A stretch of 10,992 nt of DNA, taken from NCBI GenBank assembly GCA_044356215.1, contig JBIKWQ010000092.1, positions 1-10,992 on the forward strand, in the 5' to 3' direction. This stretch comes from Bdellovibrionota bacterium. Lineage in GTDB: Bacteria > Bdellovibrionota_C > UBA2361 > OMII01. The notes below the pieces were generated by a model. That model saw only the letters and a program-made list of their open reading frames with translations, was not told where the DNA came from and made no database searches. Made by a program: the position numbers and the translations under genes. Positions 140 to 10,992 of this stretch are shown piece by piece (the stretch's first letter is position 1; every line of letters begins with the position of its first letter).

Positions 140-186
140 GACCCGCAACTGCCGTTTTTAGGTTTATACAGAGTGGAGAATGTTAT

Positions 187-1650
187 ATGGCAAGCGAAAC
201 TAACGAACTAACTTTTGTGAGGTGTCCTACCTGCCGTAGCTTGGTTCCTGCCAGTGCCTCTAGGTGTCGGATCTGTAACGCGACTCTTGAGGCAGGAGCT
301 AAACCAGCGGCTTCTGAGCCACCTGCGCCGCAGGGGCGTGCTAGGCAGAAAACTGTGTCAGCGGCGGCCGAAGAGGTTCGCGGAATTGTCGGCGCTGCAG
401 CGCCGATTGAGCCACCCGTAAAGCCGGTGTCGGTCGCTCCGGTGGCACCTGCAGAGAGCGGCAGGCCAGCTGATGTGAATGATTCAACTGAGGATGACAC
501 TTTTGATCCCCTAGGCGCGTTTCTGCAAGATCTCGACGCTGAAGAGGATAAGCCAACGCCAAGCGCGCCACCGACTCCTCAAAAAACAGAATCTCCGTTA
601 GCCGATCTCTTTGATGACAGCGACGATGATGATGACGATGACGATTTTGATCTGGATATCTTTAATGATCCAGTTTTTGAGGAGTTGTTGTCAGATAAAG
701 CCTCTAAGCAGAGCGCAGGACCGTCTGATTCGGAGGTATCTGAGACTTCGGATCTTGTGGACGATCTATTAGATCCTTTGGATGATATTGAGGAGCCTGA
801 GCCGCAGGTTGAGGTGAAACCAGAGCCGCCACCAGTGGTTCAACGTGAGCCGCGGAGGCCAGAATCGCGGAGACAGGAGCCTAGTAGGGGTGAGGGTGCG
901 CCTCAGAGGCCTAGTGAATTTGTTAATCGTGAGGAGCCGAGGTCCGCGAAGCCGGTCGAGAGACAACCAGCACCCCGTCCAAAGGTCGATTCTCCACCAT
1001 CTCCAGTTTCTCCTCGTCCAAGGATCGGAGGGGTGGGGCCACGACAGGAAGTTAACCCCAGAGTGAGCTCGGATTCGTCCTCAAAAGATCAAGCTAGCGC
1101 ACGGCCTCAGAGGCCAACGCAGCCAGAGACACGCGGAGCTGCGCGTCGAGAGGAACCGAGGCGGCCAGAAGGTAGGCCGCTGATTCATCCAGCGCGAACG
1201 GCTGCGGGATCGAATCGCGCGAATCTCGAGGACGAGCGTGAGAGAGTTCAGCCGAGCGAACCGGCACGAGAGGAGAGATCTCCGGTCGCTCCAAGTGGCC
1301 CACGTACCAACAAGATGAAACCAGGACGGTTGTTTGGTTGGTTGGTTAGTTACGAGAATCCGGATGGCCGCGCGATAGAGTTGCGAGTTGGAAGGTTCTT
1401 TATCACAGGGAACAGTATCCGAGGTAGTGATCTGATCCTTGAGGACCAGAGTATATCGACACCACACGCATTGGTGGCGATCACTGAGAATGGATTCCAA
1501 CTTCAGGATCTGATGAGTGAGCGGGGTACATTCGTGCGTCAGCAGGGCGAGGCTCAGTATTCACGTGAGGATGGAGTGATGGAGATTCGTCACGGAGATT
1601 GGATCAGGTTTGGCGATGTGGAGTTCCTGGTAACGATAGTGCCGTCTTAA
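187..1650 (+). CDS. Zinc-ribbon + long low-complexity linker + C-terminal FHA-fold protein (487 aa)
   Basis: ATG at 187 follows GGAGA (175-179) and is preferred over the TTG at 49. N-terminal CPTC-x10-CRIC zinc ribbon, then an Asp/Glu-rich and a Pro/Arg/Glu-rich linker. C-terminal FHA-like motifs: DLILEDQSISTPHA, LQDLMSERGTFV, GDWIRFG. Confidence 0.88.
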   Translation: MASETNELTFVRCPTCRSLVPASASRCRICNATLEAGAKPAASEPPAPQGRARQKTVSAAAEEVRGIVGAAAPIEPPVKPVSVAPVAPAESGRPADVNDSTEDDTFDPLGAFLQDLDAEEDKPTPSAPPTPQKTESPLADLFDDSDDDDDDDDFDLDIFNDPVFEELLSDKASKQSAGPSDSEVSETSDLVDDLLDPLDDIEEPEPQVEVKPEPPPVVQREPRRPESRRQEPSRGEGAPQRPSEFVNREEPRSAKPVERQPAPRPKVDSPPSPVSPRPRIGGVGPRQEVNPRVSSDSSSKDQASARPQRPTQPETRGAARREEPRRPEGRPLIHPARTAAGSNRANLEDERERVQPSEPAREERSPVAPSGPRTNKMKPGRLFGWLVSYENPDGRAIELRVGRFFITGNSIRGSDLILEDQSISTPHALVAITENGFQLQDLMSERGTFVRQQGEAQYSREDGVMEIRHGDWIRFGDVEFLVTIVPS

Positions 1651-1679
1651 GGTTATTTAGATATGGTTAAGGCATAGAG

Positions 1680-2537
1680 ATGAGATCATTGCGGGCGTTC
1701 ATAGCGTGTTGCTGCGCATCACTTTTAGTTGGCGGCTGTAGCTCCTCTCCGGTAGCGGATGATGTCTCTCAGCGTGAGGCTAATGAGATAGTTTCGGCGC
1801 TGGACAGGCATAGGATCGCGGCGTGGCTGGTGAAGGGGCGTGGTTCAAAAGGGCGCTACTCAGTTGAGGTGTCGTCGAGTGATTTCGCTGGGGCAGCGGG
1901 TGTACTGAGCTCTCTGGATCTTCCAGCCGAGAAGAAGCCATCGTTTCAGGAGCTCACCGGGGGAGGTGGAATTATCCCTCCAAGCCGCGAGGTAGAGGCG
2001 CTACGTTTAGATCGCGCCACAGCCCAGGAGCTAGAGGACCTCTTTAAATCAAGAAGTGATATAGCCTCTGTAAATGTGATCGTTAGGGCGCACTCGCGGA
2101 CGCGTGATGAGAAACCAACAGCTACTGTGGTTGCTCGCCGGTCTACTAAGGCTGTTCCGGATCTCAGCGAGCTAAGGGAGATAGTTAGGCGCGCGGTTCC
2201 GGGGATTCAAATAGAGGATGTTTTTATATCGGTATCTGAGCCCTTGCCGGATGAGCTTTCCGCGGGAACGCGTACATCCGGCTTGGTTTCCTTCCTCGGA
2301 TTTTGGAGGGTTCCGGAGGAATCGCACGGCGGATTGGTAGGTTTATTCGCTGGGCTGATCGCTTTGACAGGGGTGATCGCGGGGTTAGCGGGCTACCTGC
2401 TCGGTCAATTTAATTGGCTTAATAAATTAAGTGCTCCCAGCTTCAGTAAAGCTAGTCGCGTCGGGTCAATGAGTAGCGGTGGTGGTAGAGCTAGCGAAAC
2501 ATCTGAGGATGGCTCTGAGAGTGGGGACCTGGTATGA
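1680..2537 (+). CDS. sctJ: T3SS inner-membrane ring lipoprotein, YscJ/PrgK/HrcJ family
   Basis: Lipoprotein signal ending LLVGG-C20. YscJ-like motifs SQREANEIVSAL, LDLP, FQELTGGGGIIPPSREVEALRLDRATAQELE and PTATVV. C-terminal TM helix GLVGLFAGLIALTGVIAGLAGYLL. At 285 aa it fits SctJ rather than FliF. Confidence 0.88.
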   Translation: MRSLRAFIACCCASLLVGGCSSSPVADDVSQREANEIVSALDRHRIAAWLVKGRGSKGRYSVEVSSSDFAGAAGVLSSLDLPAEKKPSFQELTGGGGIIPPSREVEALRLDRATAQELEDLFKSRSDIASVNVIVRAHSRTRDEKPTATVVARRSTKAVPDLSELREIVRRAVPGIQIEDVFISVSEPLPDELSAGTRTSGLVSFLGFWRVPEESHGGLVGLFAGLIALTGVIAGLAGYLLGQFNWLNKLSAPSFSKASRVGSMSSGGGRASETSEDGSESGDLV

Positions 2538-2758
2538 GAGGAGCTAACGCTTTTATGCGTCTTCAGCCTTACGATCGCGCGCGTGTGGCGATCGCTGTGT
2601 TGCTTGATGGAGGCGAGGCGCCCATATACTTACTCAATGACGCGGAAATTGGAAAGGAGCTTAGAGAAGCCGCCGAGGAGCTGTTGTCAATGGAGTTAGA
2701 TATAAGGTTCCCGTTTGTGGGAACTATGTTGCGCTTGGCTCTAGAGGAGGCTGGCTGA
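2534..2758 (+). CDS. Small helical hypothetical protein in the SctK position (weak FliG N-terminal resemblance)
   Basis: ATGA overlap with the sctJ stop, implying translational coupling. 74 aa with amphipathic helical composition. Confidence 0.7.
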   Translation: MRGANAFMRLQPYDRARVAIAVLLDGGEAPIYLLNDAEIGKELREAAEELLSMELDIRFPFVGTMLRLALEEAG

Positions 2759-2759
2759 T

Positions 2760-3092
2760 GTGGTTGGTGATAATGAGTTAGAGTTAAAGCTTTATAGAGA
2801 TAAAGTAGTCCAGGAATTAAAGCGAAGAACTGAGGCGTTAATGGGGCTAGAGGGGCGATTGATAGACGCGCAGTTTGAATTGGATAGAGCGACGCGAGCG
2901 AGTCGAACTATCAGTGGGACAACAGCGCGAATCCAGATTGAGAACGCCCACCGGGTTAAATTGAGGTCCGCTCTGAGAGTTTTGGAAAGTGAGAGAGATG
3001 AGGCGAAGGCAGACCTGGAGCGCGCCGAACAGAGATTGCGAGAGGTTGATCAAAGACTTGATGAGCTTTTGAAAGAGGGCCAAGAGGTTTAA
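2760..3092 (+). CDS. Coiled-coil protein, putative SctO/FliJ-like stalk
   Basis: GTG start 1 nt after the previous stop, with GAGGAGG upstream. E/R/L-rich heptad pattern throughout, and it lies directly before sctQ. The SctO assignment is positional only. Confidence 0.6.
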   Translation: MVGDNELELKLYRDKVVQELKRRTEALMGLEGRLIDAQFELDRATRASRTISGTTARIQIENAHRVKLRSALRVLESERDEAKADLERAEQRLREVDQRLDELLKEGQEV

Positions 3093-3109
3093 GTGAGACG
3101 GGGTAATAA

Positions 3110-4150
3110 GTGAGTAGCGGAGAGCAGATATCAGCGGAATCAGAGGGGCAAGTTGAGCCTTGGGAGCCGCGTGGCTTTTTAAGGGCGATCGATTATCGCG
3201 AGGCGCGCCTGGCTAATGGATTCCTGCGTTGTCATCCGGAACGTTGGTTCCCGGGATTCGCTGAGCGCTGGGCGCCATTGGTCTCGACCCTTGGATGTGA
3301 GCTTAGGATGGGGGAGATAAAACCCACCATAGTTATTCCTGATGATTGCTGGATCTGTTTTCGTGGAACCTTAGAGAATGAGGCGGTCGTGGTGGCGATT
3401 GATCGACAGACCGCAGAGCTTGTAATCCAGGAAGTAGTTCCAAATATAAGCGGCGGGCTCCAGACAGACCTGGTGATTGAGTACCTGATCCAGCGCTTTA
3501 TGGCGATCTTGGGTATGACTCAAACCGCATCCGAGACCGCTGGGGCATTTATATTTAATGGCCGATGCTCCCCTAGCGAGGTCTCTTTAATGGCAGCGGT
3601 GAAGTTGTCGTTCTCCTTAAATTCCGCACCGTGCTCGGTTGTGGTCGCCTTAGGACAAGAGGCGGTCGAACGTATGGATAGGCTGTGGCGCAGGCAGGTT
3701 CACTCATCTATTCGCATAGCGCAGGAAGCCGGATTACTTAGGTTTGAGATAGCGCAATTGGGTGTGCCGCCACAGCTTCTCTCAGAATACGTCACCAAAG
3801 GCACAATAGTAGATTTAGAGGTTGCCGCGTCTGACACTCTTACGCTGAGGGTCGGCTCGAAATTATTTATGCCGGCTCGAATGATTCAGATAGATGGCAA
3901 ATTGGGGTGTCAGGTCGTGTCGGGATCGGCCACGAATCTCCCTGTGGCAGAGGGGACATCACGGCTTAGTGTCGAGATCGCGTCGATGTCAGTGGAGCCA
4001 AGTGTGCTCGCGGAGCTCGGACAGGTAGGAGCGGTGCTCAACACGGGTCGACAGCTAGATAATCGAGTCACGCTGAATATTAACCAGGAAAAGGTCGCGG
4101 ACGCCCGACTCTGCGTCTATCAGGGGCGGTATGCCATAGAGGTAGGCTAG
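3110..4150 (+). CDS. sctQ: Sorting-platform/C-ring protein, SctQ (YscQ/SpaO; FliM/FliN-related)
   Basis: Two tandem C-terminal SPOA-like repeats: LRFEIAQLGV...KGTIVDL...LTLRVG...ARMIQIDGKLGCQV and LSVEIASMSV...GAVLNT...VTLNIN...ARLCVYQGRYAIEV. Located immediately before sctR. Confidence 0.8.
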   Translation: MSSGEQISAESEGQVEPWEPRGFLRAIDYREARLANGFLRCHPERWFPGFAERWAPLVSTLGCELRMGEIKPTIVIPDDCWICFRGTLENEAVVVAIDRQTAELVIQEVVPNISGGLQTDLVIEYLIQRFMAILGMTQTASETAGAFIFNGRCSPSEVSLMAAVKLSFSLNSAPCSVVVALGQEAVERMDRLWRRQVHSSIRIAQEAGLLRFEIAQLGVPPQLLSEYVTKGTIVDLEVAASDTLTLRVGSKLFMPARMIQIDGKLGCQVVSGSATNLPVAEGTSRLSVEIASMSVEPSVLAELGQVGAVLNTGRQLDNRVTLNINQEKVADARLCVYQGRYAIEVG

Positions 4151-4196
4151 CAAAAATCCTCTGTCCAGAACGGCATCCCGTGGTTAATATGCCGAC

Positions 4197-4802
4197 ATGG
4201 ATGGATCGTTATCAATAGTCTCGGTGATCCTGGGGCTTTTACTCTTTACGACTTTTGTCAAAACAGCGACGGTTTTGTCGATAGCTCGCTATGGCTTGGG
4301 TTTGGTCGGTTTTGAGTTTGGAGCTGTATGTTTTTTTGTAGCTCTCGGTATGGCGTGGTTAGCGGTGCCGCCAGAGTTAGCCAGTCTGGGGTTTCCAGAT
4401 GCTCTATTTTCTAAGACTCAATCGATTCAGCCGCAGGTTATAACTCAGTCGTTGGTTCCATATATGGAAAGGCGGATAGATCCGGAGATCGCGGCGCATT
4501 TTAAAGGGTCAACCAAAGATGGTGTGGCTAATGATCAAGGTGTCAAAGTCCACGAGAAAGACAGTCCAATAAGCTCAGTAGCTCCAGCGTATCTGCTCTC
4601 TCAATTGAAAGAGGCTTTTCAGTTGGGGTGCATGATACTAATACCGTTAGTAACTGTAGATCTTCTGGTTGCTCACGTGCTCGCATTGATCGGCACTCAG
4701 AATATCGCGGCAGCGGCGGTGGCTTTGCCGCTAAAGATACTGCTCTTTATAGCCGCGGGAGGCTGGGGTCTTCTGGGGAAAAAATTGCTCGGCTTGGAAT
4801 AG
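4197..4802 (+). CDS. sctR: Export gate protein SctR/FliP family, divergent
   Basis: TTFVKTATVLSIARYGLG resembles TSFxKxxxVxSxLRxALG. PAYLLSQLKEAFQLG...DLLVAHVL...LPLKILLFIAAGGW resembles PAFxxSELxxAFxIG...DLVxxxxL...LPFKLLLFVxxDGW. It lacks the N-terminal signal-peptide extension typical of FliP. Confidence 0.9.
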   Translation: MDGSLSIVSVILGLLLFTTFVKTATVLSIARYGLGLVGFEFGAVCFFVALGMAWLAVPPELASLGFPDALFSKTQSIQPQVITQSLVPYMERRIDPEIAAHFKGSTKDGVANDQGVKVHEKDSPISSVAPAYLLSQLKEAFQLGCMILIPLVTVDLLVAHVLALIGTQNIAAAAVALPLKILLFIAAGGWGLLGKKLLGLE

Positions 4803-4818
4803 TATAGTATAGGGGACC

Positions 4819-5067
4819 ATGATGCGCGAAGAGCAGTTGTATGATCTTATTCAACAAGCGTGGCGCGTGGTGTTTACGCTTGTTATTCCCACATTAGCGA
4901 TACCGCTGGTGAGTTTTATTTTCTCTTTTGTTTTTGGCTTAATCGGTGTCAGAGATGAAGGGGTGGGGTACGCGTTACGTGTCCTTGCTCTTATAGCGGT
5001 TGCCTTGCTCTGCGCTCCGATTTTCGCCAGTGGATTGACTGGCCTTATGTCAGATGCTTTGAGGTAA
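4819..5067 (+). CDS. sctS: Export gate protein SctS/FliQ family, divergent
   Basis: 82 aa with two hydrophobic segments. QQAWRVVFTLVIP resembles YscS QALWLVLVLSMP, and RDEGVGYALR aligns with QEQTLGFxxK. Follows sctR, with AGGGG upstream of the start. Confidence 0.8.
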   Translation: MMREEQLYDLIQQAWRVVFTLVIPTLAIPLVSFIFSFVFGLIGVRDEGVGYALRVLALIAVALLCAPIFASGLTGLMSDALR

Positions 5068-5080
5068 AAGGCATACTATT

Positions 5081-5656
5081 ATGTGGCTGCTTTTGTGCGC
5101 TATCGCCTTTGGTGGCCCGTTGATGGTGGTCGGAGCCTCCGTCCTGCTACTCATTCCTGCTGGTTTCATGTCGCCTAGTTCGGCTCAAGCCGTCTCTGCG
5201 GTCACTTTTTGTCTCGTCAGTGTAATGATTACAGCGGCGGCTGGAACGAGTGCGGTATTTCGCTGGTGCTTTGATCGTGCTCCAGCTCGAGGGGGATCTC
5301 TCTTATCTGGATTAGTAATGGCGCTGTTTTTTTTGAGTCATGAGATTACCCTTCGCTTTATTGGCCAACTTTTTACCGGGGGTGTTCTCGCGATAAGCGC
5401 AGGAGGTTTGCTTTTTGAGCTCCTAGCAGAGTTAGGTACTTTGGTCGGGTTGGCGGTAGCGATCTCCTGTCTTGTGTTGTTGCTATTAGAATTGCCACTA
5501 AGGTGGTGTGAAGCTGGGTCAAAGTTGATTCCGGATGGTTGTTTTAGGACGCTTCGGTGGGTTGGTATAGTTATTTTTATGTTTTTAACAGCGTCTGTCC
5601 TGCGTAATGAGGGCGCTGTAAGGCTAGCGCACGCTTTTCGCGGTGCGTTGAATTAA
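5081..5656 (+). CDS. Polytopic membrane protein, putative shortened SctT/FliR
   Basis: About 5-6 hydrophobic segments, in the slot after sctRS. The C-terminal LVGLAVAISCLVLLLLELPL...FRTLRWVGIV loosely follows the FliR C-terminal pattern. The call is mainly positional. Confidence 0.6.
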   Translation: MWLLLCAIAFGGPLMVVGASVLLLIPAGFMSPSSAQAVSAVTFCLVSVMITAAAGTSAVFRWCFDRAPARGGSLLSGLVMALFFLSHEITLRFIGQLFTGGVLAISAGGLLFELLAELGTLVGLAVAISCLVLLLLELPLRWCEAGSKLIPDGCFRTLRWVGIVIFMFLTASVLRNEGAVRLAHAFRGALN

Positions 5657-5671
5657 AAAGGGGAATCTATT

Positions 5672-6256
5672 GTGGATCGCCTGACTGAAAAACAAGACAA
5701 CCTCAGAGACCTTCCGCCTACGGCCTTTTTTCCGCTCTCTGGACTGGCAACACGACTATTTGTCGTGGCGGCAATTAGTGGGGTGCTCTTTTTTATGGGC
5801 GAGAGAGCTTTAGAAAAGCTGCTTAAGCCATTTGACTCGTGGGCAAGGCTCACTGAGTCCCCTTTGGAGTCGGTTGGCGCGACACTTATTCTGTTGGCTA
5901 TCCTTGCCGTGGCGGCTTTAGTTGTTGGTGTTGTGAGCTCAGTGGCTCAGATGGGTTCGGCCTCATTTAGCGTGAGGCTCCGCTTATCAAAGGAGTTAAA
6001 TCATAGACGATTACCCCTGATGGTTGTGCTAACGACGTTGGTTTCTGGCTTTTTGGCTGTACTCGCGGTCCGATATACTTGCGGAGATCTACTGGAGATT
6101 CTCCATGTCCAAAGAAGTGACCTAGGGCCGGGCCTATTAAAGCGGCTTTTAACTCACATGAGTAAACTGGTGGTTGTCGCTTCGTCCGTTTTAGCTATAC
6201 TGGTTGTGTTTGGTTATCGTTTCGGCCTTTTGATTAAACCACAGAGTCGGGGCTAG
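5672..6256 (+). CDS. Membrane protein, putative SctU/FlhB transmembrane domain only
   Basis: GTG start with AAGGGG upstream. Four hydrophobic segments and N-terminal LTEK. LVVGVVSSVAQMG...LSKELN resembles the FlhB xxQxGxxF...SKLNP segment. The ORF ends shortly after TM4. Confidence 0.6.
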   Translation: MDRLTEKQDNLRDLPPTAFFPLSGLATRLFVVAAISGVLFFMGERALEKLLKPFDSWARLTESPLESVGATLILLAILAVAALVVGVVSSVAQMGSASFSVRLRLSKELNHRRLPLMVVLTTLVSGFLAVLAVRYTCGDLLEILHVQRSDLGPGLLKRLLTHMSKLVVVASSVLAILVVFGYRFGLLIKPQSRG

Positions 6257-6335
6257 AGTCAGACTATTTTTCAGATGGGCGAGATCTGGCCACGGTGTGA
6301 GTATTTACCGAACGAGATCTACAGGGTGTATTTTT

Positions 6336-6581
6336 ATGTCAGCATCTCCTGATCCATTCTCACTTTCGCCTCTTTTGGCGGTTCTTCCTAGGCTTGGGAA
6401 TGTATCGAGACTAGAGACGTTAGTATCTTCTCTCTTCGCCCGCTTTGAATCGCTCGACGCTCTGCGCGAAAATGTTGATGGAGCTGAGGCAAGAGCGCGC
6501 TTGGCCCATGAGGCGGCGATGCTAAGGCAGATTCTCGACTGGCTATCTGTTAATCCCGATGAGGAGAGCCACAATGAGTAA
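6336..6581 (+). CDS. Small helical hypothetical protein (81 aa; alternative GTG start at 6297)
   Basis: Co-oriented with the cluster and overlaps the TPR gene start by 8 nt. Amphipathic C-terminal helix LAHEAAMLRQILDWL. Confidence 0.65.
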   Translation: MSASPDPFSLSPLLAVLPRLGNVSRLETLVSSLFARFESLDALRENVDGAEARARLAHEAAMLRQILDWLSVNPDEESHNE

Positions 6582-7008
6582 CGAATCTTCAGCGGTAGAG
6601 TCACACAGATCAAACTACTCAAAAGAGGAGCAGCTGGATATCTACGCGTTAGCGAGGATGTGTCTTGAGTCAGGTCAGGTCAAGCGAGCGCAGGTAATTC
6701 TGCGTGGGCTTACAACAGTCGCCCCTGAGTTTGTTCCAGGTTGGCTGGCTACCGCTGTGACGCAAGCTACTCTAGGGAATATAGAGCAATCTTTAGATGC
6801 GGCTAGACAGGCGCTAAAACTGCAGCCTGATTCACCGATAGCTATGATAATTCTGGTAACAACCTCTCTAACGCTAGGTGACCAGAGCACTGCTGGTACA
6901 TATCTGGGCGAGTTAAATGAGATGATCGAGCAGGGAATGGTTAGTGATCCGAATCTTATTAGGCTCTTTAAGATGCAGATGGTTCGGTATAATTCGCCGA
7001 ACTCGTAA
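6574..7008 (+). CDS. TPR chaperone, SycD/LcrH/CesD-like (or YscY-like)
   Basis: ATG at 6574 follows GAGGAG (6561-6566). EEQLDIYALARMCLESGQVKRAQVILRGL resembles SycD LEQLYSLAFNQYQSGKYEDAHKVFQAL, followed by further TPR motifs (WLATA...LGNIEQSLDAARQALKLQPDSP). Confidence 0.78.
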   Translation: MSNESSAVESHRSNYSKEEQLDIYALARMCLESGQVKRAQVILRGLTTVAPEFVPGWLATAVTQATLGNIEQSLDAARQALKLQPDSPIAMIILVTTSLTLGDQSTAGTYLGELNEMIEQGMVSDPNLIRLFKMQMVRYNSPNS

Positions 7009-10000
7009 GAAAGGAGCGAAAAGAGGAGAGCAGCGAATCGTTGTCTTTAAGCAGATCGCTTGGACTCCCGAAATCAATCAGGCGCCCATTCTTTAGGCCA
7101 AGGATCAGATCGGCGTCCATCACAGTTGGCAATCTGTGGGCCACTATGAGAACTGTGGCGCCACGAAGTTCATTCCGCAGAACGTTTTGAATCTGATAGT
7201 CAGCCTCGGAGTCTATTGACGCGGTAGCCTCATCAAGAATTATCACTTTGCTCTTTCTCAGAAGAGCGCGCGCAAGAGAGATTAATTGACGTTGGCCAGC
7301 GCTAAAATTAGCACCGCCTTCACGGACATCCGTGTTTAGTTGATCTGGGAGAGACACTACCAGTTTTTTTAGACCAACCCGTTCCAGGGCATCCCAGATC
7401 TCCTGGTCTGAGCAAGCCTTAAAGGGATCGAGGCTCTCGCGAAGCTGTCCTGAAAATAAGATCGGTTCTTGCGGAACAACGGATAAGGCGCCGCGCAATT
7501 CGGACAGCGCGAGTGTTGAGAGGTCGATTCCATCGATCTCGATAGAACCAGAGGATGGTTCAACAAGGCGCAGCAAGCTCAATATAAGTGTACTCTTACC
7601 CGAGCCGGTACGACCGATTATTCCGACGCGACTGCCAGGGGGGATCACGCATGAGATTCTGTCAAGGGCCAAGGGTAGCTCTGGCTTATAGCGAGCGCTA
7701 AAATTCTCTAAGGTTATCGATCCGCGTGATGGCCAGCCAGAAGGGGGAGTGTTTCCGTGCGGCGATTCCGAAGGTGTATGCGCGTAGCGCTCAATCCGCT
7801 CATAAGAGGTTAAATTATTCTCGACCATCGATATACTGCGGATAGCCCAGACCATCGTGGATGTCATCATAATAGCGTAGGCCAGAGCCAGACCCGATAG
7901 AGCCACACCGGATGAAATTCCTAGATTAAGAGAGACACTTAACCCGATTCCTAAGATTATCGCGACCCCAACCGACTCAAGGCGAAGACCGAGCCACCTG
8001 TTAGTTGCAGTTTGTGTGTAGGTTATTCGGTTGTGGGCGTCTAAGGCTTTGGTGTATCTCGCGGTAAATATGTCGGCTAGCTTCGATGCTCTAAGTGCCT
8101 CTACACCGGCGAGGCACTCCGAGAGTATCGCGAAGATAGGGGATAGCGAGAGTGCGCTAAGACGCTGTAAATCCCTTGAGGCGGGCCTGAAGAATCGCGC
8201 CGCCAGATAATAGATGGCGGCGGCCGGACCGATAATCATAAACACCGCCGGAGCGACAAAGGTGACTATTAGGCATACAGTGAGTGTTTCTATCAGGCAG
8301 TGACCAGTATCAATAAGCGCCCGTGGAAGAGCGAGCTCGACGTTCTCAAGATCGCGACTAAACCTGTTTAGTACGCGGCCCACCGGATGAGACTCAAAGA
8401 AGTTAAGTGGCGCGTGAAGAATCCCATGAAGTAAGTCTTTGTGAGCCGATATCCCCGCTTTCATTCCAGCGCTAAAGACGCTCATCGTGCGAAGGTATCC
8501 AATAACTCCCAATAGAGTCACACATCCCAAATATCCGGAGAGGAATGTAGTCAGATCAACTTGCTTAACCCCTGACCAACTAGTCAGCCAGAGATCGGTG
8601 GCAAGCGCCGCACCTTGGCGACCTACAAAGAGTAGCGCTATACCGAACAAAGCGAAGCCGGGGGCCAATTTACGGAAATAAGATGTGACAGTGGCGTTGG
8701 ATACGGCGCCCGTCCGTCGCTCCTCAGTCTGAATGAGTGGTTCAGGTGACGCGGGAAACTCATCATCTCTGTCTACCTCCTCTTCCTGGGAGATCTGAAA
8801 ATTAGCTGACCTATGTTCGCTTGTTGTGAAAGAAGCCTCGTCACTTATTTTTTGGTGGAAGTGAAGGAGCTGTTTGAAGCGGTCGGAATGAGCTATCAGA
8901 TGCCGTGGTTCTCCCTGTTCAATAATCTCACCGTTATCAATTACTAAAACTCGATCCGCTTCCATGGCGAATTCGAGTCTGTGACTAACAACAATCCTGG
9001 TCTTATCTCGTAGCTCACCGCGGATAAGATTATTGAATACGTGTCGGGCAACTTGAGGATCGAGAGCGCTTAAGGGATCGTCTAGTAAATAGATCTCGGC
9101 GTTTTGGTAGACAGCTCGCGCTAGGGCCACGCGGTGGCGCTGGCCACCCGATAGGTTTATTCCGCGTTCACCAATTCGTGTCGCGTCACCGGCTGGTAGG
9201 TTTTGCAAATCAGGACGTAATCCCGACGCAAAGAGCGCCCGTTGATAACGTGAATTATCAAAATCTCCCCCAAAAGTTATATTATCACGAACTGAATCAC
9301 TTATAATCCAGGGGTGCTGAGGTACATAGGACACGGGACCTCCGAGAGACACGCTCCCCGAGTCGCTCGGTAGTTCTCCAAGGATACTTAAGAGTAACGC
9401 AGTCTTTCCGGATCCAACTGATCCTACTACTACGACTAATTCGCCACGAGAGATTGAGATGCCATCTTTTACGCGAGTAGCCTTCGCACCGCCCGAGGAC
9501 CATGTAGTCTTGAGATCTTGTATTATGATCGCCTCAGCCTGCTCTTTAATAACCTTAGTTGGAACGAATTCAGACGAGGTGAGAAAGGTATGAATTCGCT
9601 TCGCCGCTACGCTCGCTTCGACCACGCTGTGGACCGTCTCAGGGAGCATGTTCAGCGAGAAGCGTAGTTGCATAAATAGGGTTAAGACAGGGAAGAGTGT
9701 GGCGGCTTCTAAGGTCGCACCAGACCTTACTAATAAGATCGAAGTGGTAGCCATCGCCGCGGCTGGCGCTATGCCAGATGAGATGGCGAATAACGCCGAT
9801 AATCTGGCTAATTTAGCCGCTATCGCCGCTTCCTCTTTACGTAGGGAGTTAATCTTATTTTCTAGGTTGGCTTCCCATCCCTGGGATTTGGCGGCCTTTA
9901 TGTGAAGAAGAGTCTCTCTTGTAAGCCCAACTCTGCTGTCCGCGATGCGAGAGAGCCTAGAGCGCAGTCTTCCCTGCTCGCGCGCGATAAGAATCGAGAA

Positions 10001-10744
10001 GGATAGAAGTAGAGCTAATGTGCATCCTCCAGCTAGAGCGGGAGTACCAACGAGTCTGTATAGCAAAAAGATTATCGCTATAAGTGTTAGTGGGTGATAC
10101 CAGATGGAGTTTAAGAAGACGAATAAGTTTTGAATTTTTAAGGAATCAGTCGCCACCAAATTTACGATTAGTCCGGCGGACATTCGGTGCTGCTCTGATC
10201 TTTGCTGTCTAAGTGCTTTTTGAAAGATGAGGGCGTTAAGGGCAGCACGTAACCTAATAGCCATATTAGGCTGAAAGAAAAATAAGTAGTGTGAGCCAAA
10301 GATACCGATGAGCGATGAAGTGGCGAGTGTTATGGCGCATAGGATCGGATACGGAATATTCAACGCTGAATGTATCGCCGCGAATGGATCCCTTTCGATC
10401 CACTCTGGCGAAGAGGATCTATCGCTGAGGGCTTTTAGTAGCTCCCTTAATATGAGCGGGTTAGCTAACGCGACAGCTAAACAAACGAAGGAAAAGGCCA
10501 TGACAATCGCTATCGTTCCGATATAGCAGGAAGCCGCGGCGGCAAATAAAGAGAGGTAGCCGAAAGATTTAAATTGAGCCGCGGCGAGACCTAATCTTTC
10601 AGAGTCACCGGTAACTTCCATATGCTTCGGCAGCTTAGGAAGGTCTGACGGATTAAGTGGGGCTTTGTTAGCACTTCGTATGACCGGAGTGGCCCAGCTA
10701 AAGAGCAGCTTAGATAATAGAGATGGAGAGGACCTGGGCTGCAT
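6968..10744 (-). CDS. Full-length ABC exporter, ABCC/MRP subfamily (TMD-NBD-TMD-NBD, 1258 aa)
   Basis: N-terminal lasso-like SLLSKLLFSWATPVI...PLNPSDL. NBD1: GSVGSGKT, IGERGINLSGGQ, IYLLDDPLSALD. Linker EERRTGAV. TMD2: FFESHPVGRVLNRFSRD. NBD2: GRTGSGKS, VPQEPILFSG, NFSAGQRQL, IILDEATASID. Confidence 0.95.
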   Translation of the reverse strand: MQPRSSPSLLSKLLFSWATPVIRSANKAPLNPSDLPKLPKHMEVTGDSERLGLAAAQFKSFGYLSLFAAAASCYIGTIAIVMAFSFVCLAVALANPLILRELLKALSDRSSSPEWIERDPFAAIHSALNIPYPILCAITLATSSLIGIFGSHYLFFFQPNMAIRLRAALNALIFQKALRQQRSEQHRMSAGLIVNLVATDSLKIQNLFVFLNSIWYHPLTLIAIIFLLYRLVGTPALAGGCTLALLLSFSILIAREQGRLRSRLSRIADSRVGLTRETLLHIKAAKSQGWEANLENKINSLRKEEAAIAAKLARLSALFAISSGIAPAAAMATTSILLVRSGATLEAATLFPVLTLFMQLRFSLNMLPETVHSVVEASVAAKRIHTFLTSSEFVPTKVIKEQAEAIIIQDLKTTWSSGGAKATRVKDGISISRGELVVVVGSVGSGKTALLLSILGELPSDSGSVSLGGPVSYVPQHPWIISDSVRDNITFGGDFDNSRYQRALFASGLRPDLQNLPAGDATRIGERGINLSGGQRHRVALARAVYQNAEIYLLDDPLSALDPQVARHVFNNLIRGELRDKTRIVVSHRLEFAMEADRVLVIDNGEIIEQGEPRHLIAHSDRFKQLLHFHQKISDEASFTTSEHRSANFQISQEEEVDRDDEFPASPEPLIQTEERRTGAVSNATVTSYFRKLAPGFALFGIALLFVGRQGAALATDLWLTSWSGVKQVDLTTFLSGYLGCVTLLGVIGYLRTMSVFSAGMKAGISAHKDLLHGILHAPLNFFESHPVGRVLNRFSRDLENVELALPRALIDTGHCLIETLTVCLIVTFVAPAVFMIIGPAAAIYYLAARFFRPASRDLQRLSALSLSPIFAILSECLAGVEALRASKLADIFTARYTKALDAHNRITYTQTATNRWLGLRLESVGVAIILGIGLSVSLNLGISSGVALSGLALAYAIMMTSTMVWAIRSISMVENNLTSYERIERYAHTPSESPHGNTPPSGWPSRGSITLENFSARYKPELPLALDRISCVIPPGSRVGIIGRTGSGKSTLILSLLRLVEPSSGSIEIDGIDLSTLALSELRGALSVVPQEPILFSGQLRESLDPFKACSDQEIWDALERVGLKKLVVSLPDQLNTDVREGGANFSAGQRQLISLARALLRKSKVIILDEATASIDSEADYQIQNVLRNELRGATVLIVAHRLPTVMDADLILGLKNGRLIDFGSPSDLLKDNDSLLSSFRSFLTSSANYTEPSAS

Positions 10745-10897: not shown

Positions 10898-10984
10898 ACC
10901 ACAGAGGACGCAGAGGACACAGAGAATAGGCCATTTTATGGGCAATTATGGAGTTTTCTCTGTGTCCTCTGCGTCCTCTGTGGT
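10898..10984. repeat. Perfect 29-bp inverted repeat with 29-nt spacer (REP/MITE-like)
   Basis: ACCACAGAGGACGCAGAGGACACAGAGAA (10898-10926) is the exact reverse complement of 10956-10984. Each arm has internal 9-nt periodicity (CAGAGGACG/CAGAGGACA/CAGAG). Confidence 0.9.
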
Positions 10985-10992
10985 AAAAGTAT

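Follow-up and report, generated by a model that had tools for sequence, protein, structure and literature searches.

A membrane-only SctU/FlhB homologue in a Tad-linked, needle-less type III secretion gene set of Bdellovibrionota

SctU/FlhB is regarded as essential, and its cleaved domain as central to substrate switching. In structural work on FlhB (PMC7064499), the membrane hairpins are part of the export gate and the cleaved domain switches substrates. The protein studied here, U1, shares with the SctU/FlhB/YscU/SpaS family (PF01312; 6S3L, PMC7064499) the four-helix membrane domain, the N-terminal motif, the Gln that opens the gating loop and the gene position behind sctRST, but lacks the CN helix, the NPTH motif and the CC domain, and in its genus the loop is about 12 residues shorter and devoid of the conserved loop motif. 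Stand-alone FlhB C-terminal domains, named FlhX or HP1575, have also been reported; they accompany a full-length FlhB, which they replace only partly.

Myxococcus harbors two non-flagellar sets, the needle-less T3SS* (mxan_2434-2464), to which contact-dependent prey lysis is ascribed, and T3SS(2), together with the Kil/Tad system, and, as in the organism studied here, neither a needle nor a T3SS secretin. The likeness extends to an SctI-like protein, a sigma factor, TPR chaperones, a stand-alone C-domain gene and the co-occurrence of Tad. According to two reviews (PMC10849154, PMC12428579), the combination of Tad and T3SS* is confined to the Cystobacterineae, and the proposal that Tad and a needle-less T3SS form one machine is left open in the Discussion of PMC12075869. 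A literature survey whose scope took in few subscription papers brought up neither a naturally membrane-only SctU nor one divided at the cleavage site, and outside myxobacteria it showed no Tad-T3SS* operon.

We reached the locus of Myxococcus eversor via a published sctN primer. Its needle-less locus encodes a 359-aa SctU with an NPDH motif and a FliK/SctP-like protein (PF02120, 1e-6), and its short locus a SctU of 349 aa. Directly behind the full SctU of the T3SS* lies a 93-aa stand-alone FlhB-C gene (L180:17921-18202). The needle-less state alone thus does not remove the switch or the ruler, since this locus keeps SctU, a C-domain gene and a FliK-like gene; the preliminary description of the present DNA had held the lack of length control and hierarchy to be consistent with a needle-less machine, and M. 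eversor does not support the view that one follows from the other. Sampling 41 genomes of the order of Myxococcus with PF01312 gave matches in 27, comprising 40 full-span rows, some of which may be flagellar, and 14 C-domain rows; short stand-alone C-domain rows occurred in 12 of the 41. No membrane-only SctU row was found in these 41 genomes, in a search that would miss a divergence like that of U1 (E 1.09 in the same kind of search of its own genome).

The window analyzed here (10,992 nucleotides) is one whole contig (JBIKWQ010000092.1, hereafter C111) of a 3.24-Mb, 96% complete genome of an uncultured Bdellovibrionota bacterium (GCA_044356215.1, here G000). Bases 175-7008 form a single run of genes on the plus strand. 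The run opens with a protein (175-1650) made of a Zn ribbon, a long disordered region and a C-terminal FHA domain resembling the cytoplasmic part of SctD or Kil-type FHA proteins (PF00498, 4e-8; PF16697, 2e-7), with orthologues in the same slot. The Zn ribbon is N-terminal and the disordered region is acidic and Pro-rich. The inner-membrane ring lipoprotein SctJ (1680-2537; TIGR02544, 5.5e-19) is followed by a conserved 74-aa protein (2534-2758) without family match, presumably SctK from its position and with an orthologue in another order (E 3e-12 in G101), and by a 110-aa coiled coil (2760-3092), probably SctO/FliJ-like, which matches coiled-coil families only and has an orthologue in G025. 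Next come the C-ring protein SctQ (3110-4150; PF01052, 5e-13), the fast-evolving SctR (R1, 4197-4802; PF00813, 9.5e-28), whose branch length of 2.45 compares with 1.21 for the second SctR of the genome (R2) and 0.22 for FliP, and SctS (S1, 4819-5067; NF011877, 1e-3). The shortened SctT (T1, 5081-5656) has 191 aa vs. 242 for its counterpart T2 and gives no match alone; PF01311 is matched by 6 of 47 proteins of this slot (best 4e-13), and a T1 profile retrieved neither FliR nor T2 from the genome and only a weak FliQ match from the PDB. Within the order, T1 has about 190 aa; most T1 proteins of other orders have 240-310.

Downstream of U1, a conserved 81-aa protein, X (6336-6581), occupies the slot before SctY. 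Its start is most likely the ATG at 6336 and not 6297, as shown by the orthologues. Within the order, 79 of 91 genomes have a match to X, and within the phylum 103 of 124. X has no Pfam match and no convincing PDB match, and reaches a probability of 0.7% when compared with the protein of the Myxococcus slot, so that the name SctX is positional only. The run ends with a SctY/LcrH-like TPR chaperone (6574-7008; NF052415, 2.9e-8; TIGR02552, 1.4e-7, both under the curated cut-off). A single-chain ABC transporter of 1258 aa, with two membrane and two ATPase domains in an ABCC/MRP-like layout, lies on the minus strand (6968-10744), converges on the cluster and overlaps the TPR gene at its end. The contig ends in short repeats, direct and inverted (10900-10990), which resemble those next to other repeat-rich stretches and could account for the break in the assembly. 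In relatives, an FHA gene stands ahead of the cluster; its orthologue here lies at the end of contig C78 (G000:C78:46467-47819), a contig that may border on the window, and no exact overlap between the two was found.

U1 (5672-6256, plus strand, GTG start) encodes 194 aa directly 3' of sctR-S-T. Its hydropathy profile displays four peaks, its structural model (mean pLDDT 73) features long predicted helices at residues 24-51, 64-96, 111-145 and 153-188, and the chain ends 11 residues past the conserved Arg183 of helix 4, in agreement with the initial account of a four-TM protein with a short tail in the sctU slot. That account had noted no NPTH in U1 or the following ORFs, and indeed none of the six frames of the window contains the motif. 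The gating loop is about 12 aa short (Q-to-R span of 90 in the window vs. 102 in FlhB); across the genus the span is 88-98 and the conserved loop motif is lost, the loop being nearer normal in other families. U1 is hence a SctU/FlhB homologue without the cleaved cytoplasmic domain, and we class it as a homologue, not as a switch protein, because the domain that undergoes NPTH autocleavage is absent.

Taken alone, U1 matches PF01312 marginally (E 0.046), and its E of 1.09 in the PF01312 search of the genome indicates that divergent membrane-only forms escape this profile. With its model as query, Foldseek retrieved the membrane part of FlhB (6s3l_K) weakly (TM 0.45, E 4.8, rank 6), a wide fold search with VIA-align listed generic helical bundles only (best Z 8.2) and no FlhB, and the ESM Atlas held no match of at least 0.9 for U1 or X. 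A complex prediction with two R1, T1 and U1 scored 0.00 against a mark of 0.32 and is evidence neither way.

Homology was established at the level of the family. Using X as anchor, we examined 70 loci, which gave 45 complete family-matching slot proteins, 3 proteins cut by contig ends and 22 loci without match at E<1e-3; among the latter, 8 have sctQ near X without sctR, 7 have sctR with a weak or unmatched slot gene and 7 show another context. PF01312 was matched by 24 of 33 family members (best E 1e-15). A profile built from the 45 slot proteins, with no FlhB included, retrieved residues 10-234 of the FlhB of this genome among 14,061 genome frames (E 2.8e-21), thereby bearing out the claimed FlhB homology, and in the PDB it retrieved FlhB (5e-19) and SpaS (9e-9). 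All 45 proteins are 181-225 aa long and free of NP[TSE]; the beginning of the FlhB linker (M[ST][RK]x[ED]) is retained in 24. In other orders of the class, the U1 gene was present in 18 of 20 fetched loci, and in none does the protein reach the strand preceding NPTH. Past the helix-4 Arg, seven proteins from other orders have a tail of 27-42 aa, 29 proteins of the order one of 11-29 aa and 16 of the genus one of 11-20 aa, compared with 58-65 for the second SctU of these genomes (U2) and 147-151 for full proteins. Longer forms, of 393-2000 aa, were searched for without success, a weak piece of evidence, the range of 341-392 aa lying outside the index searches; a HMMER search of the whole library with no length limit returned 29 matches, 27 of which have 135-211 aa, the two others being long proteins matched over 35 residues only. 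The U tree is poorly resolved and does not unite all U1 in one clade, U1 orthology resting on gene order. Since truncation prevails throughout the other orders, the order and the genus, the switch domain was most likely lost in the class ancestor.

The genome encodes three FlhB-family membrane proteins and one stand-alone C-domain. The first of the three belongs to a flagellar fliPQR-flhB-flhA set on contig C71, whose FlhB has NPTH. A flagellar origin of U1 was considered and rejected, given this complete set and the position of R1 and both SctV outside FliP and FlhA in trees. Trees of SctV and SctR place both non-flagellar sets apart from FlhA/FliP and group them with neither Myxococcus locus, on long branches. 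G008, G009, G010 and G049 (>90% complete) have no full-length FlhB row and possess the cut SctU forms, which suggests that the T3SS sets persist there without a flagellum.

A second export set (G000:C99:10413-17559) comprises an SctI-like protein (PF17001, 7e-4), a 321-aa coil protein, R2, S2, T2, U2, a kinase and a C-half gene. U2 has 260 aa and ends where NPTH would be; a 1042-aa hybrid histidine kinase follows, and then the C-half gene, whose 88-aa product covers PF01312 positions 262-333, as a protein of the FlhX/HP1575 type would. The two halves are about 3 kb apart in this genome and 75 bases apart in G036. Of the 150 matches listed out of 341, 65 stop close to profile position 256 and were taken as U2, and 84 FlhB and 1 partial sequence were dropped. 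Among the matches listed, 50 of these 65 have the C-half downstream, on the contig and strand of U2, at a distance of 75-6,807 bases; for 12 it lies on another contig and for 3 it is not listed. The split U2 also occurs in other orders and is class-wide. In contrast to known FlhX, the C-half thus stands behind a SctU that ends exactly at the cleavage site, and has no link to U1: it tracks U2 and persists in genomes that have lost U1. Because U2 stops exactly at this site, the C-half looks like its obligate other half, judging by the gene sequences. The preliminary description had named a stand-alone FlhB-C gene as a finding that would speak against it; such a gene is present, but is cognate to U2, not to U1. 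A CRISPR array and a cas operon, presumably of type I-F-like layout, directly adjoin this set upstream (G000:C99:17749-30650). The split U2 set is arguably as novel as the U1 finding itself.

The 321-aa protein of this set (G000:C99:16335-17300) combines an SctO-like coiled coil and an SctP/FliK-like C-terminal domain, which are two adjacent genes in M. eversor. It was found in 18 of 91 genomes of the order, all in this genus. PF02120 is matched by 9 of the 18 members (best 9e-4), 5cuk is reached with E 0.15 by sequence and 0.036 by fold, and the comparison with Myxococcus SctP gives a probability of 4%; these lines are individually weak but agree in suggesting an SctP-like domain. The absence of SctP/FliK noted at the outset is therefore true of the window, and probably not of the genome.

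A further set (G000:C70:26011-32319) contains a FliA-like sigma factor, a second sctJ, a gene in the sctK slot, sctQ, a 131-aa gene, a second sctV and a TPR lipoprotein. It resembles part of the long Myxococcus locus, where the 131-aa gene has a counterpart, and its SctV and SctJ/Q are assigned to the second gate by elimination, the genome having two non-flagellar SctV genes, on C131 and C70. Besides FliI, one ATPase was found for both non-flagellar sets, SctN on contig C9. As in the Myxococcus-type T3SS*, SctJ, Q, R, S, T, U, V and N were all found. Compared with M. eversor, whose SctU is full-length in both loci, both SctU are cut here.

The link of the U1 set to Tad was apparent on contig C131 (G000:C131:7866-20256), where sctV lies directly behind cpaB-tadA-tadB-tadC. 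The run there consists of a Ser/Thr kinase, a ParA-like gene, cpaB, tadA, tadB, tadC, sctV and a kinase-like gene. In G101, from another order, a single run on one strand (G101:C2:308900-333200) holds the cpaB/tad genes, sctV, a kinase-like gene, two FHA genes and J-K-O-Q-R1-S1-T1-U1-X-Y. Three of 14 further upstream stretches (G095, G097, G108) display the same contiguity of Tad, sctV and cluster, making four distant relatives in all, and it is absent from the other 11, one of which spans only 4.3 kb; in the present genome, Tad-sctV falls on C131, a different contig from the window (C111). Given the sctV adjoining tad genes on C131 and the contiguous run in these four relatives, U1 belongs to the Tad-linked set, whose genes adjoin one another in some lineages and are dispersed in others, as they are in this assembly. 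The sharing of one gene run by Tad and T3SS genes in four relatives sets this lineage apart from Myxococcus and amounts, on gene order, to a predicted Tad-T3SS operon outside myxobacteria.

One way to read these data is that of a working needle-less exporter, which dropped both switch and ruler because no filament is built, and has no secretion hierarchy at all. The needle-less character claimed beforehand stands: in this 96% complete genome we found no SctF needle (PF09392, best E 0.7) and no SctC-type secretin, the two secretins present being GspD- and PilQ-like by sequence and neighbors. U1 is switchless class-wide under purifying selection and U2 is also devoid of NPTH, so that autocleavage is impossible in either non-flagellar set. 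This reading is nevertheless unlikely, as the needle-less loci of Myxococcus retain a full SctU and an SctP-like gene, a conserved C-half gene accompanies U2, an SctP-like domain exists in the genome and gate 1 (R1-S1-T1-U1) was lost in at least two lineages. The earlier idea of a system without length control or hierarchy is accordingly to be narrowed: the absence of a switch holds for gate 1 only and is not supported for the T3SS of the organism, the C-half gene and the SctP-like domain lying in the second set.

The losses and the evolutionary rates of gate 1 bear on another reading, namely that U1 and its gate are a vestige, perhaps expressed, whose export function is gone and of which only the ring, C-ring and X/Y genes still matter. 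The tail and loop of U1 have eroded stepwise, R1 has long branches and T1 is shortened. According to Kuhlen et al. (PMC7064499), deletion of at least 6 residues of the FlhB loop abolishes motility. U1 is the fastest evolving of six genes, and variants among strains alter a residue in 4 of 7 cases, vs. 3 of 20 in its neighbors. The dN/dS ratio of U1 is 0.21-0.30 in four pairs within the genus and 0.45-0.59 in the two pairs involving this genome, values which, with dS near saturation, also fit drift in the case of the latter two. R-S-T-U was deleted cleanly in five genomes, where sctQ ends 30-78 bases before X. In nine genus members picked as seemingly lacking U1 (84-99% complete), each has only two FliP-family genes, and the tree of X and Y places the loss on two separate branches, one beside the clade of this genome; both SctV genes were retained in the five loss genomes checked (5/5). 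Loss of sctR1-S1-T1-U1 with retention of sctQ, X and Y was seen in G046, G047, G050, G053, G055, G058, G069 and G075. Gate 1, judging from gene content and the tree, has been lost at least twice in the genus and is dispensable, and the U1 copy of the window looks like the most eroded, dispensable form. Yet the frames are intact in 45 of 70 loci from many families, dN/dS is well below 1 in all six pairs and the gate has been retained since the class ancestor, and we rate a mere vestige as slightly less probable than the switchless exporter.

It could also be envisioned that U1 is half of a split SctU, with the stand-alone C-domain gene supplying both gates in trans. C-domains do act in trans in HrcU (PMC3040844) and in H. 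pylori FlhB (bioRxiv 2021.08.29.457346), and many genomes of other orders carry two stand-alone C-domain genes. However, HrcU and H. pylori FlhB keep CN up to the cleavage site in those same accounts, whereas U1 ends about 45 residues earlier; the C-half gene follows U2 and stays in place where U1 is lost, and the second C-domain copy of other orders is often on the flagellar contig. Lacking the CN helix and the first strand, and ending about 45 residues before the cleavage position, U1 would be unable to take up a free C-half, and we consider the in-trans arrangement improbable.

Near-identical DNA was detected in lake and river metagenomes, with at least half of the words of the window in 16 runs (2 of them possibly the source); four RNA runs contained 5-9% of its words, and no reading rests on them. 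The U1 stop codon is unchanged in the contigs of four out of four independent runs, none marked as a possible source, and the region 6230-6340, suggested beforehand as the place to look for a frameshift, is bridged in three of them. The only indel, an additional T in all three bridging runs (at 6330, in the intergenic T-run 6331-6335 on the plus strand), lies just before the ATG of X and leaves U1 unaffected. Despite this one-base difference from other assemblies, an assembly error or frameshift hiding a C-domain, or a strain-specific pseudogene, is rejected with near certainty, as the stop is kept in all runs, the indel falls 74 bases past it and homologues at 99, 73, 51 and 40% identity share the same end point; the truncation is genuine.

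With moderate confidence, we favor the reading in which U1 fills the SctU slot of an accessory second gate that has no switch, in a class that would possess two needle-less export gates besides the flagellum, this gate being an accessory channel or a scaffold for the Tad-linked ring and fading in the genus. The two helical hairpins of U1 would still pack on the R1-S1-T1 gate, as those of FlhB do, completing and sealing a gate that is incapable of substrate switching. Ordered or length-controlled export, if any, would proceed via gate 2, with its split U2 and SctP-like protein. Gate 1 would then act as an accessory single-mode channel, or as a scaffold coupling the ring, SctV and the C-ring to the Tad machine, and its shorter loop, missing linker, shortened SctT and repeated loss suggest that it is decaying in this genus. 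More tentatively, and with less confidence than the favored reading itself, one may imagine a joint Tad-T3SS machine in one operon in a second bacterial phylum, whose switchless gate might hand one substrate class over to the periplasm, from where the Tad pilus would deliver it. The second gate would possess a genetically pre-cleaved SctU, with a C-half gene of its own that in most cases lies beyond a hybrid sensor kinase, and switching could thus be governed by gene expression or signaling instead of autocleavage.

U1 is a real, class-wide and apparently undescribed SctU variant within a two-gate, Tad-linked, needle-less T3SS. The class offers two long-kept natural dissections of SctU, one reduced to its membrane part and one cut precisely at the cleavage site, with which it can be tested directly whether the membrane half by itself gates export, and whether cleavage, or only its product, is needed. 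That Tad and needle-less T3SS genes share a single run outside Myxococcales lends genetic support to the one-machine proposal of PMC12075869, and would make a common freshwater lineage a candidate for contact predation.
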